Shown here: in pieces, positions 5,968 to 42,111 of the stretch | Layout of the letters: every line of letters begins with the position of its first letter | How positions within the stretch are numbered: the stretch's first letter is position 1 | Source: Eubacteriales bacterium | GTDB lineage: Bacteria; Bacillota; Clostridia; Oscillospirales; CAG-382 | Length of the DNA: 64,000 nucleotides | Assembly (NCBI GenBank): GCA_045536535.1 | Contig: JAZSNS010000019.1 | Location: 18,826 to 82,825 of the forward strand | Direction of reading: 5' to 3' | Program-made: the position numbers and the translations under genes | The notes under the pieces: model-generated | What the model was told of the DNA's origin: nothing | The model's database searches: none | What the model saw: only the letters and a program-made list of their open reading frames with translations

Positions 5968-6978
5968 TCAGACCGATTTTGTTGCAAAAGCGTTGAGATT
6001 TGTGTCTCCCAACACCCCTTTTTTGTATTCAAAATACCCCTGCGAAGCGATCATAGCGGCGTTATCTCCGCAAAGTTTCAAAGGGGGAAGAAAGAGTTTT
6101 GCGCCGAACTTGTCTGCCGTTTTTTCGACCGCTTTTCTCAGATGGGAGTTTGCGGCAACGCCGCCTGCAAGAACAATGTTGCAACCGCCCTCACGCGAGA
6201 GAAGAAGTTCAAGACGCGAGTCAATGGTGCGAATGAGAGTTTCGGTAAAGGACGCCGCAACGTCTGCGCGGAATTCGTCGTCGATAACTCTGCCGCGCTG
6301 GGTCTCGCTGTGAACGAGGTTTATCACCGCCGTTTTAAGTCCCGAGAAAGTAAAATCATATTCAGCGCCGTCAACGCTGCCCGCCGTGAATTTGTATTTA
6401 TGTTTGTCGCCGAGCGAAGCGAGCCTGTCCATAGCCGCGCCGCCGGGATAGGGAAGTCCGAGCACGCGCGCGCATTTGTCAAATGCTTCGCCTGCCGCGT
6501 CGTCACGGGCCTGTCCGATGAGACTGTATTCGGTATAATCGCTGACGCGCATCAGCGAGGTGTGACCGCCCGAAACGACGAGCGAAACAAAAGGCGGTTC
6601 AAGATCGGGGTGTGCAAGATAATTTGCCGCAACGTGACCGCGAATATGATGAACCGGCACGAGCGGTTTTCCGCTTGAAAACGCCAGCCCTTTTGCAAAA
6701 GAAAGACCTGTCAGCAAAGCGCCGATAAGACCGGGAGCGTTCGTGACGGCAATTGCGTCGATATCGTCAAGCGTCACTTCCGCCTGTGCGAGCGCGCTTT
6801 CGACAACACCGCAGATAGCCTCGGTGTGCGCTCTCGATGCGATTTCGGGAACAACACCGCCATAGGCCGCGTGGATATCAATTTGTGATGCGACAACGCT
6901 TGAAAGCAGATTTCTGCCGTCTTCAACGACAGCTGCCGCAGTTTCGTCACATGATGATTCTATGCCAAGTATCTTCAT
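5968..6978 (-). CDS. tsaD: tRNA N6-adenosine threonylcarbamoyltransferase TsaD
   Basis: MKILGIESSCDETAAAVV...GGVVPEIASRAHTE...HHIRGH..., the typical Kae1/TsaD signature. Confidence 0.95.
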   Translation of the reverse strand: MKILGIESSCDETAAAVVEDGRNLLSSVVASQIDIHAAYGGVVPEIASRAHTEAICGVVESALAQAEVTLDDIDAIAVTNAPGLIGALLTGLSFAKGLAFSSGKPLVPVHHIRGHVAANYLAHPDLEPPFVSLVVSGGHTSLMRVSDYTEYSLIGQARDDAAGEAFDKCARVLGLPYPGGAAMDRLASLGDKHKYKFTAGSVDGAEYDFTFSGLKTAVINLVHSETQRGRVIDDEFRADVAASFTETLIRTIDSRLELLLSREGGCNIVLAGGVAANSHLRKAVEKTADKFGAKLFLPPLKLCGDNAAMIASQGYFEYKKGVLGDTNLNAFATKSV

Positions 6979-7067: not shown

Positions 7068-7496
7068 TCAAATCGTTTTATCCATTAAGATCGCGTCGGC
7101 ATCGCCGTAAAAGCCTTTTCGTTTTCCGACCGTGAAAAATCCTAACTTTTCATAAAGCGCAACGGCGGATTTATTGTTTTCGGCAACTTCAAGAGTTACG
7201 GTTTTGCAATTTTTCTCTTTTGCTCTTTCGAGAAGCCGGTTCATAAGCGAATTTGCAATGCCTTTTCGGCGGAATTTTTCGGAAACCGCAACGTTCATGA
7301 TCTGCCCTTCGTCAAGCAGGCAATACATCGAGGCGATCCCGCACATTTCTTCACCATCAAACGCAACGAGATAAACGGCATTCTCGGGGAGTTCGGTTAT
7401 CTGCTTTTCCGTCCATGCGGTTTTAAGGCATTCTCTCTCGATAGCGGCCGCTCTTTCGGCTTCGTCTTTCGCGACATTGCGAACGGTTATACTCAT
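7068..7496 (-). CDS. rimI: Ribosomal-protein-alanine N-acetyltransferase (GNAT, RimI-type)
   Basis: GNAT core NVAVSEKFRRKGIANSLM and synteny directly upstream of tsaD. The start MSITV at 7496 overlaps the upstream stop as TAATG; the listed ORF extends to 7535. Confidence 0.8.
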   Translation of the reverse strand: MSITVRNVAKDEAERAAAIERECLKTAWTEKQITELPENAVYLVAFDGEEMCGIASMYCLLDEGQIMNVAVSEKFRRKGIANSLMNRLLERAKEKNCKTVTLEVAENNKSAVALYEKLGFFTVGKRKGFYGDADAILMDKTI

Positions 7497-8182
7497 TATT
7501 CGCCGACCATCCTGACGGTTATCTCGTTGGGACATACGACCGTTTTGCCCGTCGCGCGGTCGCGGAGATAATATCTTCCGGTGCCGTTGCCGAAGAATAC
7601 GACGAGATAATAAAGACCGGGGTATTTTTTTGAAAGAAGACGGATAAAGAACATATCCTCGGTCGAGATGTTATCAACCGCGACGTCTTCGCCGTTCTCT
7701 ATTGCGGTTGCAATGCTTTGGCAAAGCGCGCTGTCGCGGTCGCCCACAACGCCGTTTTTCTCATCTTCGGGGAGATATTTTTCGTCGGCATAAAAGGTCG
7801 TGACCTTAACTGCGTTGGTTTCGTTATAAACTTCCGCCGCGATGGGTTCAAAGGTATAAAGAGTCGGTTCTTCGATATCCTTGTTGCGGACAAGCAGATA
7901 TTCGCCGCTGTCTTCAATGCAAAGGAACTCGTTGGGGTCTTCAAGTAAAAGCTCGTAATATATCATTTTGCTGCTGCCCGAGCCTACTGTGATATATTCC
8001 TTGATGTATTTCTTGCTCGGCACCGAGGCATAAAGCCCGAAGGGCGCGACGTCAACATATTCTATATCGGTGTTTTTGTCTATAAATCCGTAAAGGGTTT
8101 CTTCGCCGCGCTTTTGAAAGCAGGAAGTGAGCGAAAACAGCATTAAAACGGCAAGTGAAATTGCAAGAATTCTTTTTGTCAT
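7496..8182 (-). CDS. Lipoprotein, function unknown
   Basis: Lipobox signal MTKRILAISLAVLMLFSLTSC. Overlaps the rimI start by 1 nt. Confidence 0.75.
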   Translation of the reverse strand: MTKRILAISLAVLMLFSLTSCFQKRGEETLYGFIDKNTDIEYVDVAPFGLYASVPSKKYIKEYITVGSGSSKMIYYELLLEDPNEFLCIEDSGEYLLVRNKDIEEPTLYTFEPIAAEVYNETNAVKVTTFYADEKYLPEDEKNGVVGDRDSALCQSIATAIENGEDVAVDNISTEDMFFIRLLSKKYPGLYYLVVFFGNGTGRYYLRDRATGKTVVCPNEITVRMVGE

Positions 8183-41104: not shown

Positions 41105-41178
41105 GCAGGCGTAGTTTAGTGGCAGAACTTCAGCTTCCCAAGCTGACTGTGCGGGTTCGATTCCCGTCGCTTGCTCCA
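41105..41178 (+). tRNA. tRNA-Gly (anticodon CCC), CCA encoded
   Basis: Acceptor GCAGGCG/CGCTTGC, anticodon stem TCAGC/GCTGA with loop TTCCCAA, T-loop TTCGATT, discriminator T plus CCA. Confidence 0.9.
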
Positions 41179-41244
41179 AAAGAAAAAGAGACGCAAGGTC
41201 TCTTTTTTTCTTTTGGATTACAAAAATGGAGGGAATCGAAGGGC
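41177..41244 (+). repeat. 68-nt direct repeat, copy 1 (tRNA-Gly 3' flank)
   Basis: Matches 42044-42111 at 67/68 positions; the single difference is T41227 versus C42094. Confidence 0.9.
41183..41210 (+). terminator. Rho-independent terminator after tRNA-Gly
   Basis: AGAGAC-GCAAG-GTCTCT followed by TTTTTT. Two more hairpin+T-run structures follow at about 41248-41276 and 41368-41410. Confidence 0.72.
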
Positions 41245-41345
41245 AGTAAAAAAACAGTCCGGTGGACTGTTTTTTCTGCCACAGGGGAGAGAGCGAAAAG
41301 GCGAGAGCGAGCGGAGCGCAGCGGCAAGCCTTGAAAGCGAACGGA

Positions 41346-41365
41346 GATTCCCGTCGCTTGCTCCA
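41346..41365 (+). repeat. 20-nt perfect direct repeat of the tRNA-Gly 3' end (att-like remnant)
   Basis: GATTCCCGTCGCTTGCTCCA at 41346-41365 is identical to tRNA positions 41159-41178. Confidence 0.88.
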
Positions 41366-41410
41366 ACAAAAAAGTCTCTTTTGTCTATCAGACAAAAGAG
41401 ACTTTTTTCA

Positions 41411-41580
41411 ATGATATCCGTTCCCTGCGGTCGCAGATGATACAGCAAACGCTATGATATCTGCTTCGCAGATGATATACGCTTCGCGTATGAAGGAACG
41501 GATATTATATCATGCTTGCGGAGCAAGTATATCATACGGCGATAGCCGTATATCATGTCGCGTCAGCGATATATCATTGA
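41411..41580. repeat. Array of short hairpin units separated by ATC/GAT trinucleotides, in two opposed orientations
   Basis: Right half: ATC + ATGCTTGC-GGA-GCAAGTAT (41512-41530), ATC + ATACGGC-GATA-GCCGTAT (41534-41551), ATC + ATGTCGC-GTCA-GCGATAT (41555-41572), ATC. Left half, inverted: ATCTGC-TTC-GCAGAT (41459-41473) and ATACGC-TTC-GCGTAT (41477-41491), plus two imperfect units. An outer 13/14 inverted repeat pairs 41411-41424 with 41495-41508. Confidence 0.6.
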
Positions 41581-41605
41581 ATACTGCAATAATTCATGGT
41601 ATAAT
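41577..41605 (+). promoter_or_regulatory. sigma-A-like promoter (TTGAAT-17-TATAAT) abutting the hairpin array
   Basis: TTGAAT at 41577-41582 and TATAAT at 41600-41605, 22 nt upstream of the ATG at 41628. Confidence 0.5.
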
Positions 41606-41627
41606 CATTTCGAAAGGAGAATGCGAA

Positions 41628-41984
41628 ATGAAAAAATTATATATTATATTACTTGTCGTTGTTTTGATTTTTAATCTCACTGCTTGTGATGAGGATTTGG
41701 TAAAAGGAAGTATTGTAAACCAAGCAAACAACACAACAGCAGAACTTGATATTATGCCTCAAAAACTGTTTGAATTTGCAGAGATTGGCGATATAGTTGT
41801 GGTAACTGCTGGGAATTTCAAAGCAGAAATGCCCCTTGTTGATGAATTGATTGCAGAAGAAGGCAAATTGCAATTATTTTATGATGCAAATGAACATACA
41901 TTAAACATATGTTCTTACAATCAAAACTTTTTTGAAACTTGTGATGTTTCATCCGATGACAAGGTTAAAATTAACAAAAAGTGA
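41628..41984 (+). CDS. Small lipoprotein, function unknown (AT-rich cargo gene)
   Basis: Start MKKLYIILLVVVLIFNLTAC at 41628 with a GGAGA RBS; the listed ORF start at 41454 reads through the hairpin array. Hand count of 41641-41700 gives 18/60 G+C. Confidence 0.65.
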   Translation: MKKLYIILLVVVLIFNLTACDEDLVKGSIVNQANNTTAELDIMPQKLFEFAEIGDIVVVTAGNFKAEMPLVDELIAEEGKLQLFYDANEHTLNICSYNQNFFETCDVSSDDKVKINKK

Positions 41985-42043: not shown

Positions 42044-42111
42044 CAAAAGAAAAAGAGACGCAAGGTCTCTTTTTTTCTTTTGGATTACAAAAACGGAGGG
42101 AATCGAAGGGC
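42044..42111 (+). repeat. 68-nt direct repeat, copy 2
   Basis: 67/68 identical to 41177-41244. It includes a second copy of the AGAGAC/GTCTCT terminator hairpin. The preceding about 15 nt weakly resemble the tRNA 3' end. Confidence 0.9.

Follow-up and report, generated by a model that had tools for sequence, protein, structure and literature searches.

Gut-1-type hairpin arrays of gut Clostridia are bipartite, often lie behind tRNA genes and are coupled to 23S_rRNA_IVP genes

In a 64,000-nt stretch of contig JAZSNS010000019.1 from a Eubacteriales bacterium (referred to below as the window), nine heptamer linkers occupy positions 41411-41577, the first five of the ATGATAT type and the following four reading ATATCAT, with short palindromes of unlike sequence between them. 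Sequence comparison shows this array to be a worn representative of a chromosomal module that is conserved in gut Clostridia, mostly Oscillospirales, and whose left half was known before as the Gut-1 RNA (Rfam RF01706). The bipartite extent of the module, its position between a tRNA terminator and a promoter, and its coupling to genes of the 23S_rRNA_IVP family (referred to here as IVP) are new. In abundant gut Clostridia, Gut-1-type arrays and IVP proteins are coupled both physically and in evolution.

The array itself was confirmed as a real feature and not an artefact. The linker-pair pattern TGATAT-N9-17-RTGATAT has 4 matches in the window, all of them inside the array, compared with 0.02 expected, and a generic scan for at least three identical 6-mers with hairpin-forming spacers found the array as the only such site in the 64 kb. 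Its folding z-scores are -6.5 for the + strand as RNA (-73.4 kcal/mol), -5.2 for the - strand as RNA, and -5.4 for the + strand as DNA, and its fold was unmatched by any of 200 shuffles.

The original description of Gut-1, in 2010, drew on 43 sequences from human-gut metagenomes and gave no organism, context or function; on covariation, Weinberg et al. rated the motif 'Y' (probable RNA) (PMC2864571). In a permissive Rfam scan, the window matches Gut-1 with 29.2 bits on the + strand at 41409-41501 (left block) and with 30.5 bits on the - strand at 41524-41599 (right block), compared with a gathering score of 50 bits for RF01706. The features that define Gut-1, namely at least three short hairpins, conserved RUGAWAU linkers and covarying stems, are all found in the window array. 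The left blocks of related arrays (L124, L186, L182, L127, and others) score 50.9-74 bits, in every case on the strand that carries the upstream tRNA, whereas the sub-branch of the window, which also contains L141 (a Faecousia and the closest relative), L157, L159, and L170, stays below the Rfam threshold; the window copy is therefore a decayed representative of a variant not captured by the Rfam model in its present form. In the flanks of the published Gut-1 alignment, two seed members have an upstream terminator (one of them also a tRNA), GUGAUAU linkers, and a second block with AUAUCAC, all unannotated. The true unit is about twice as long as the Rfam model: a terminator hairpin (hairpin 0) and the left block are followed by a right block in inverted orientation and often by a promoter.

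The family was collected by a scan of genomes anchored on the centre motif ATATWATATCAY, which returned at least 120 loci, with 106 full elements among the matches listed. Nearly all of the matches listed are in metagenome-assembled genomes (MAGs) of gut or rumen Clostridia (Acutalibacteraceae, Faecousia, Ruminococcus, and other Oscillospiraceae), one carrier is a complete chromosome (L194), and 2-4 arrays were seen per MAG. The array had no blastn matches in plasmid and phage collections, and a three-linker scan of viral contigs returned only giant-virus tandem repeats and AT-rich noise. Nothing relevant was found in the literature on the linker words or on hairpin repeats at tRNA flanks.

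All copies are bipartite and share one plan, in which hairpin 0 is followed by five left linkers enclosing four hairpins, an AT-rich centre, and four right linkers enclosing three hairpins. The right-block linker is always the reverse complement of the left-block linker, and the same word is used in all 8-9 linkers of an array. The pairs found are ATGATAT/ATATCAT, GTGATAT/ATATCAC, ATGAAAT/ATTTCAT (in L150, the canonical Gut-1 linker type), ATGATGT/ACATCAT, and GTGATGY/RCATCAC. The distance between linkers varies from 16 to 26 nt across the family, so there is no helical phasing. Besides these types, a further hairpin array stands directly after a tRNA-Cys terminator in L198 (- strand view, ~6790-6900), with TATGTAAT-like linkers and unrelated stems, which suggests that there are more linker families than were sampled.

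Between the linkers, sequence is free while pairing is kept. Spacers form hairpins in 95% of cases compared with 36% of shuffles, and at a stem length of at least 5 bp in 74% compared with 2%. In 78 aligned left blocks, 94.8% of cells are paired, compared with 74.6% in column shuffles (none of 500 as high) and 29-51% with slid partners, and several of the left-block pairs show four Watson-Crick types. The arm beside the first linker (arm X) has alternative partners, one proximal and one distal, the latter just before the centre, and both pairings covary; the model of the left block gives a compact four-way fold of a closing stem and three hairpins. Stems are ~96-97% Watson-Crick, with 8 G:T against 13 A:C pairs in the left blocks and 34 G:U against 16 A:C pairs on the strand that reads ATATCAY. 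A C-G pair closes nearly every loop, and on this same ATATCAY strand the loops are of the G..A type (GAA, GTA, GCA, GCAA, GTAA, GTCA), so that the loop-favoured strand flips at the centre. The similarity of left blocks and that of right blocks are poorly correlated (r = 0.10 and 0.31), and some arrays are mosaic pairs.

Two ways in which the blocks might interact were considered and set aside. Complementary loop pairs between left and right hairpins are no commoner within arrays than between them (p = 0.32, 0.61), which speaks against kissing loops. Pairwise pairing of left with right linkers is unlikely as the sole constraint, because all linkers of a block share one word, and the G/A variation of left linker 2 is uncompensated on the right.

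A tRNA or transfer-messenger RNA (tmRNA) gene lies within 400 nt upstream on the same strand in 59 of the 106 arrays, with more than 17 tRNA identities represented, and cases on the opposite strand are almost absent. In about 45 arrays, hairpin 0 is all that lies between the tRNA end and the start of the array 33-46 nt further on. Several more arrays, like that of the window, stand behind orphan 3' fragments of tRNAs, and one comes after the 5S rRNA and tRNA-Asn with which an rRNA operon ends. A hairpin of at least 6 bp stands just upstream in 96 of 101 arrays, most often with a gap of 0-2 nt to the array (64/96), and the hairpin 0 core CTTTTGTC-loop-GACAAAAG recurs before arrays of several linker types. 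The A-tract of hairpin 0 was considered as a sign of leftward transcription; its frequency (67%) does not differ from that in other terminators of the same loci (55%). At the other end, a promoter-like site lies within 57 nt of the array in 27 of 101 cases, compared with 6 of 426 control windows, and in 17 arrays besides that of the window the -35 box begins on the last base (-1) of the last linker. Divergent promoters at the centre were also considered; the - strand motif TGATATAAT looks attractive for TGATAT-type arrays and is absent from TGATGT/GTGATGY arrays.

The only recurrent neighbour of the arrays is a 117-aa gene that starts ~51 nt downstream and encodes a PF05635 23S_rRNA_IVP protein (E = 1e-23 to 1e-28; TIGR02436, 'four helix bundle protein'). 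In loci selected by the array, 12 of 13 IVP genes lie 28-56 nt after it. For the reverse test, loci were chosen from metagenome contigs by the IVP protein alone, and among the 49 distinct loci obtained, a full array lies directly upstream in 40 and a partial one in 6, which leaves 3 without any; a tRNA or tmRNA is in place upstream in 26 of the 37 IVP loci with enough upstream sequence, representing at least 15 identities. Further, linker type tracks protein clade: the TGATA and TGATG clades have 76-77% identity within and 55% between (maximum 63%). Outside this setting, the family is familiar from rRNA genes, where it occurs in inserts, and likewise from cas loci. Relatives of the protein are pentamers: PDB entry 2rld has 5 chains, and Xcc0516 is described as 'five four-helix bundles' in the entry given as reference 48 of PMC3936711. 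A universal IVP-array rule is ruled out by array-free operon copies in other phyla and in Monoglobus, so that the pairing is specific to this clostridial lineage.

Some individual IVP loci deserve mention on their own account. In L258/L259 (~1180-1500), a single IVP gene lies between two arrays, one of the TGATAT type on its upstream side and one of the TGATGT type, with a separate hairpin 0, on its downstream side, so that two linker types coexist in one genome. On the Treponema saccharophilum plasmid pTS1 (L326, 350-650), ~250 nt of contiguous purine-rich RTGAAAG/GCGGAAAG repeats are followed by a complementary CTCTCCG/TTTTCCG block; this opposed repeat array has no hairpin spacers and lies just upstream of a four-helix-bundle (IVP) gene. 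In Monoglobus pectinilyticus (L325, 600-700), an unannotated IVP homologue separates the hsdS and hsdR genes of a type I restriction-modification operon and is preceded by a duplicated AATTAGGAATGAG motif, with no array.

The window copy follows the family plan with some decay (Table 1). Of its left-block linkers, ATGATAC (41437) and ATGAAGG (41490) are degenerate, and a repeat search finds the 14-nt inverted repeat 41411-41424/41495-41508 to be 93% complementary. An earlier note on this DNA, made from the sequence alone, had described two opposed blocks of hairpin units at 41411-41580 with constant flanks and variable stems that still pair, a closing inverted repeat around the left block, and an end exactly at the -35 box of a lipoprotein promoter. 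Coordinates and description hold on the sequence, and the preserved pairing, the closing repeat and the -35 contact at 41577 are borne out by the values given here. The 21-22-bp period that it proposed stands in the right block (22, 21, 21) and fails in the left (26, 17, 18, 18), and the idea of sites two helical turns apart falls with the unphased spacing of the family. Of the checks it named, those on further instances, covariance among homologues and shuffled controls came out in favour of the array, with the loci of the centre-pattern scan, pairing above all 500 column shuffles, and none of 200 shuffles of the array folding as well. The tRNA-terminator link, the bipartite reverse-complement rule across linker types, and the IVP link go beyond that note. 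The ATATCAT/ATGATAT 7-mer is also frequent elsewhere in the window (18 copies in all compared with ~5.5 expected), with no strand bias and no local clustering.

Table 1. Array, tRNA remnants, promoter and gene in the window (positions are those of the 64,000-nt stretch)
Feature	Position	Strand	Description
tRNA-Gly(ccc) gene, intact	41105..41178	+	ARAGORN; Rfam tRNA 64.4 bits
Direct repeat A	41177..41244	+	68 nt, includes the tRNA terminator 41181-41209; repeat search, terminator scan
Decayed tRNA-like stretch	~41298-41365	+	Ends in a second copy of the last 20 nt of tRNA-Gly (GATTCCCGTCGCTTGCTCCA) at 41346..41365
Hairpin 0	41368..41408	+	19-bp perfect inverted repeat with A-tract and T-tract; core CTTTTGTC-loop-GACAAAAG; array begins 2 nt later
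Left block	41411..41501	+	Linkers and four hairpins; aligned with 77 homologues
Left-block linkers			ATGATAT 41411, ATGATAC 41437, ATGATAT 41454, ATGATAT 41472, ATGAAGG 41490
Left-block closing arm	41418-41424		CCGTTCC, able to pair with the distal GGAACGG 41495-41501
Left-block hairpins			CTGC/GCAG 41425-41436; AGC/GCT 41444-41453; CTGC/GCAG 41461-41471; ACGC/GCGT 41479-41489
Centre	41502..41513		ATATTATATCAT; linker orientation flips here; - strand reads TGATATAAT
Right block	41507..41577	+	ATATCAT linkers at 41507, 41529, 41550, 41571
Right-block hairpins			GCTTGC/GCAAGT 41514-41528 (loop GGA); ACGGC/GCCGT 41536-41549 (loop GATA); GTCGC/GCGAT 41557-41570 (loop GTCA)
Sigma-70-type promoter (predicted)	41577..41605	+	-35 TTGAAT 41577-41582, 17-nt spacer, extended -10 TGgTATAAT 41597-41605
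Predicted lipoprotein gene	41628..41984	+	118 aa; signal peptide, lipobox LTAC; RBS (ribosome-binding site) AAGGAGA 41614-41620
Direct repeat A'	42044..42111	+	Second copy of the 68-nt tRNA-terminator segment; repeat search, terminator scan

The surroundings of the window array fit the same picture. The decayed tRNA-like stretch received no tRNA call from ARAGORN; its last 20 nt (41346-41365) repeat exactly those of the intact tRNA-Gly, which lie 187 nt upstream, and the array begins 45 nt after them, the usual distance from tRNA to array. Hairpin 0 resembles a bidirectional terminator and is the only hairpin here with the form of an intrinsic terminator (a GC-rich hairpin with a U-tract), each array hairpin being followed by a linker and by no T-run. 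The last linker and the -35 box share one base, the T at 41577, and a promoter scan gives this promoter 10 of 12 consensus matches with TG. It would drive the lipoprotein gene, and the array is a 'solo' copy fused to the lipoprotein promoter. The lipoprotein has no Pfam or PADLOC family and no entry in the protein collection, and the proteins of the window have no recorded entries in the collection searched. The repeats A and A' (99% identity, spacing 867) span the tRNA-Gly terminator plus 30 nt, and bracket an 867-bp unit. Besides the array and the lipoprotein gene, this unit contains hairpin 0, the decayed tRNA-Gly end and a second terminator, and it looks like a Campbell-type insertion or a local duplication.

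We favour, tentatively and with less than even confidence, the interpretation that the linkers bind a multimeric factor, for which IVP is the candidate, that the hairpins serve as spacers, and that the resulting complex gates or insulates the adjacent promoter. The repeated heptamers would be the recognition sites of this trans-acting factor, the leading candidate being the pentameric four-helix-bundle 23S_rRNA_IVP/TIGR02436 protein, whose own gene usually stands right behind such an array. The short GC-clamped hairpins may be structural elements only, which, when folded in unwound DNA or in a transcript, would place successive linkers side by side; if they act by bringing linkers together, stem sequence and length would be free and only pairing would be kept. 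With its blocks facing each other, the array would hold the factor head to head, and the complex, placed downstream of a strongly transcribed tRNA unit and upstream of the next -35 box, would gate or insulate the promoter there, in the window that of the lipoprotein gene. The IVP gene itself may be one target, and solo arrays such as that of the window may serve others. Consistent with this proposal are the concerted change of linkers within an array, the linkage and co-divergence with IVP, the fixed register of the -35 box, the lack of an RNA-type strand bias, and the lack of room for an upstream promoter, since only 0-2 nt separate the terminator from the first linker.

Several points weigh against it. 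An operator in double-stranded DNA needs no hairpin spacers, so that the model must invoke unwound or extruded DNA or RNA, and the linker spacing lacks a helical phase. An adjoining IVP gene is present in only ~12% of the arrays found by the array pattern, the window contains no IVP gene, and a recognisable promoter at the right end is present in only about a third of arrays. IVP genes on plasmids of cyanobacteria, Chloroflexota, and Bacteroidota, and in Monoglobus, lie inside operons with no array, hence the protein does not need the array. The co-divergence of linker and protein could reflect mere physical linkage, a plain operator model leaves the fixed position after tRNA genes unexplained, and the left half was judged to be RNA on covariation by the Rfam curators (PMC2864571).

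A broader form of the proposal would make the arrays the nucleic-acid ligand of the 23S_rRNA_IVP/four-helix-bundle (Avd-like) family, with a pentameric ring reading five hairpin-presented heptamers. This would be a new switch or insulator between terminator and promoter, which would also mark tRNA-proximal slots of cassette exchange in gut Clostridia. We regard this form as conceivable but doubtful.

Among the alternatives, the one that survives best is that the array is a non-coding RNA, as Rfam files Gut-1, whose hairpins and single-stranded linkers would act in a transcript, for example by sequestering a protein in the manner of a sponge or by serving IVP or a different RNA-binding protein as ligand, and which could be made by read-through from the tRNA unit or as a 5' leader of the downstream gene. 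The structured RNA suggested by the earlier note gains from the Gut-1 match of related left blocks, which pass the gathering score on the tRNA strand, and loses in the window copy, which at 29-30 bits does not. The strong covariation with variable stem lengths, the 'Y' rating by Weinberg et al. (PMC2864571), the folding of the + strand, the GNRA/GNA-type loops and G:U excess on the ATATCAY strand, and the compact four-way fold of the modelled left block all speak for RNA. However, no promoter fits between terminator and first linker, and the array lies upstream, not downstream, of the mapped promoter consensus, whose fixed -35 register would be unexpected for an RNA. Loop types and wobble pairs point to different strands on the two sides of the centre, and in the left block to the strand opposite to that of the Rfam model; there is almost no overall G:U enrichment in stems that are ~97% Watson-Crick, and the extended -10 at the centre of TGATAT-type arrays is absent from the TGATGT type. 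Taken together, we consider a functional RNA rather unlikely.

Less probable still, in our view, is that the array is a recombination or insertion junction for small gene cassettes that home to tRNA 3' flanks, i.e., a cis site comparable to attC or dif with a crossover near the AT-rich centre. The cassettes proposed would be promoter-plus-gene units encoding IVP, lipoproteins, and small membrane proteins. The module of terminator, array, promoter, and IVP gene stands behind at least 15 different tRNAs and a tmRNA across genomes, always on the same strand and beginning 33-46 nt after the tRNA end, and several arrays, including that of the window, follow orphan tRNA 3' fragments. Two arrays flank 2-3 kb of small genes on the L145, L184, and L150 contigs, and in L166 (- strand view, ~7360-8000) at least four complete tandem arrays succeed one another behind tRNA-Leu without an intervening hairpin 0. 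The window unit is bracketed by its 68-nt direct repeat, as after a Campbell-type insertion, and the weak correlation of left and right blocks with mosaic pairs would also fit recombination. The IVP-carrying inserts of rRNA genes have been called selfish elements (PMC4990558). Against this, no integrase, transposase, or HUH gene recurs near the arrays, the flanking genes are mostly ordinary chromosomal or housekeeping genes, the plasmid and phage collections gave no match and the viral contigs only noise, and no downstream direct repeat of the tRNA end was found in the loci. The nearest relatives of the window (76-81% identity) lack the tRNA-Gly neighbourhood in both loci examined, so that synteny is not conserved and there is no empty site to compare. 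A classical tRNA-integrated island was rejected on similar grounds, given that the loci hold no downstream copy of the tRNA 3' end and their 493 neighbouring open reading frames (ORFs) show no enrichment of integrases or recombinases.

Quite improbable is a passive element of the type of repetitive extragenic palindromic (REP) sequences, with mini-hairpins that act as back-up transcription barrier, topological (gyrase) site, or protector of mRNA ends and have no dedicated sequence-specific partner: the position directly after tRNA, tmRNA, and rRNA operon terminators, two orientations that could block polymerases from either side, stems that are near-perfect palindromes on both strands, and C-G-closed GNA/GNNA loops, which are unusually stable as DNA mini-hairpins, would suit it, but it explains neither the conservation and concerted change of the 7-nt linkers nor the reverse-complementary blocks, the IVP link, and the fixed -35 register, and the hairpins carry no U-tracts.

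Besides the window, the right flank of some arrays is organised in a recurrent manner. In ten loci (L127, L138, L150, L184, L198, L202, L207, L228, L237, L240), the array is followed by a conserved promoter and a ~55-nt 5' untranslated region (TAACTCTTGCACC...TATGCTATAAT...AGGCGGTGA..ATG), which would drive different small membrane or secreted ORFs per locus, and a conserved 3' segment (GAAAATCCTCGGTTTTCG..CAGTTCTTTTTCGGACACGAATGAC) stands before the next hairpin 0. This organisation, found behind tRNA-Cys and other tRNAs, is cassette-like. In another group (L182, L189, L195, L238, L168, L176, L190), a conserved CAAAGTATGTAACCCACTATGACACTTTCAA lies ~60 nt after arrays with a GAGGCGCACTCC..GGAAGTGCGCCTC hairpin 0, and its reverse complement resembles a promoter aimed at the array.

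The coupling joins two orphans: Gut-1, without an assigned function since 2010, and the IVP/TIGR02436 proteins, known since 1993 and without a function outside diversity-generating retroelements. Two entities of unknown function thereby become one testable system. If the coupling is functional, it would represent a new type of cis element, in which short recognition words are presented by sequence-free hairpins, and would explain a recurrent tRNA-flank feature of the gut microbiome. For annotation, the present Rfam model describes only one half of the unit, and entire sub-branches escape it, the window copy among them.

The arrays can be compared with known repeat systems. Clustered regularly interspaced short palindromic repeats (CRISPR) have direct repeats of 23-47 nt and unique, non-palindromic spacers of similar length, whereas the array has 7-nt repeats and palindromic spacers of 9-19 nt, and the earlier note was right to exclude them. 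Integron attC sites are single long imperfect palindromes with inverted R''/R' core sites, and belong to promoterless cassettes near intI; in the arrays, the hairpins are flanked by direct repeats, the downstream genes have their own predicted promoters, and no intI was seen among neighbouring ORFs. Iterons and integrase arm sites, which the note had entertained, are characterised by helical phase, an adjoining rep or int gene, and duplication of att, none of which applies here: no Int or Rep gene is near, no attR repeat was found in the loci, and the plasmid and phage collections gave no match. Its suggestion of hairpin substrates for HUH enzymes or for RAYT (REP-associated tyrosine transposase) likewise finds no support, as no recurring family of integrases, recombinases, transposases, HUH, RAYT-like, Rep, or intI proteins was found among the 493 neighbouring ORFs.

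REP sequences of Proteobacteria and their compound forms, bacterial interspersed mosaic elements (BIMEs) and REPINs (REP doublets forming hairpins), are similar to the arrays in being clusters of extragenic palindromes with alternating orientation, often 3' of transcription units and in several copies per genome. They typically have a cognate RAYT (a Y1 transposase) and hundreds of near-identical copies per genome. REP stems are conserved in sequence, are 20-40 nt long, and have a 5' GTAG and a RAYT gene, whereas array stems are variable and of 4-8 bp, and the conserved part is the 7-nt linker. The orientation also differs, with four or five units one way and then four the other. Ordinary REP elements were thus correctly excluded before, the palindromes here being 11-19 nt long, variable in sequence, and free of GTAG.

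Closer to the interpretation that we favour are the heptad operators of ribbon-helix-helix proteins, such as omega of pSM19035 and the parC/ParR-type centromeres, in which multiple 7-nt direct or inverted sites lie at promoters, including that of the regulator itself. The arrays resemble them in having opposed 7-nt sites upstream of or overlapping a promoter, and the type B linker TATCACT fits WATCACW. The heptads of omega and ParR lie end to end or in phase, and the proteins read them as double-stranded DNA, whereas the array linkers are parted by variable hairpin spacers of 9-19 nt. The candidate partner is, moreover, a four-helix bundle instead of a ribbon-helix-helix protein.

Two further comparisons concern the systems that the arrays bring together. 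Intervening sequences of 23S rRNA that contain IVP were reportedly described by Ralph and McClelland in 1993. Such inserts, among them the Coxiella intervening sequence (PMC4990558), are similar to the arrays in combining a PF05635 gene in or near stable-RNA genes with an inverted-repeat structure. The 23S rRNA inserts lie inside rRNA helices and are excised by RNase III, whereas the IVP genes next to arrays follow tRNA genes, have their own predicted promoter, and carry a bipartite array on one side. Gut-1 shares with the arrays three or four short hairpins, conserved (G/A)UGA(A/U)AU linkers, and covarying stems. As described (PMC2864571), it is a small RNA known from gut metagenomes only, whereas the arrays reported here are in named genomes, behind tRNA genes, and before IVP genes.

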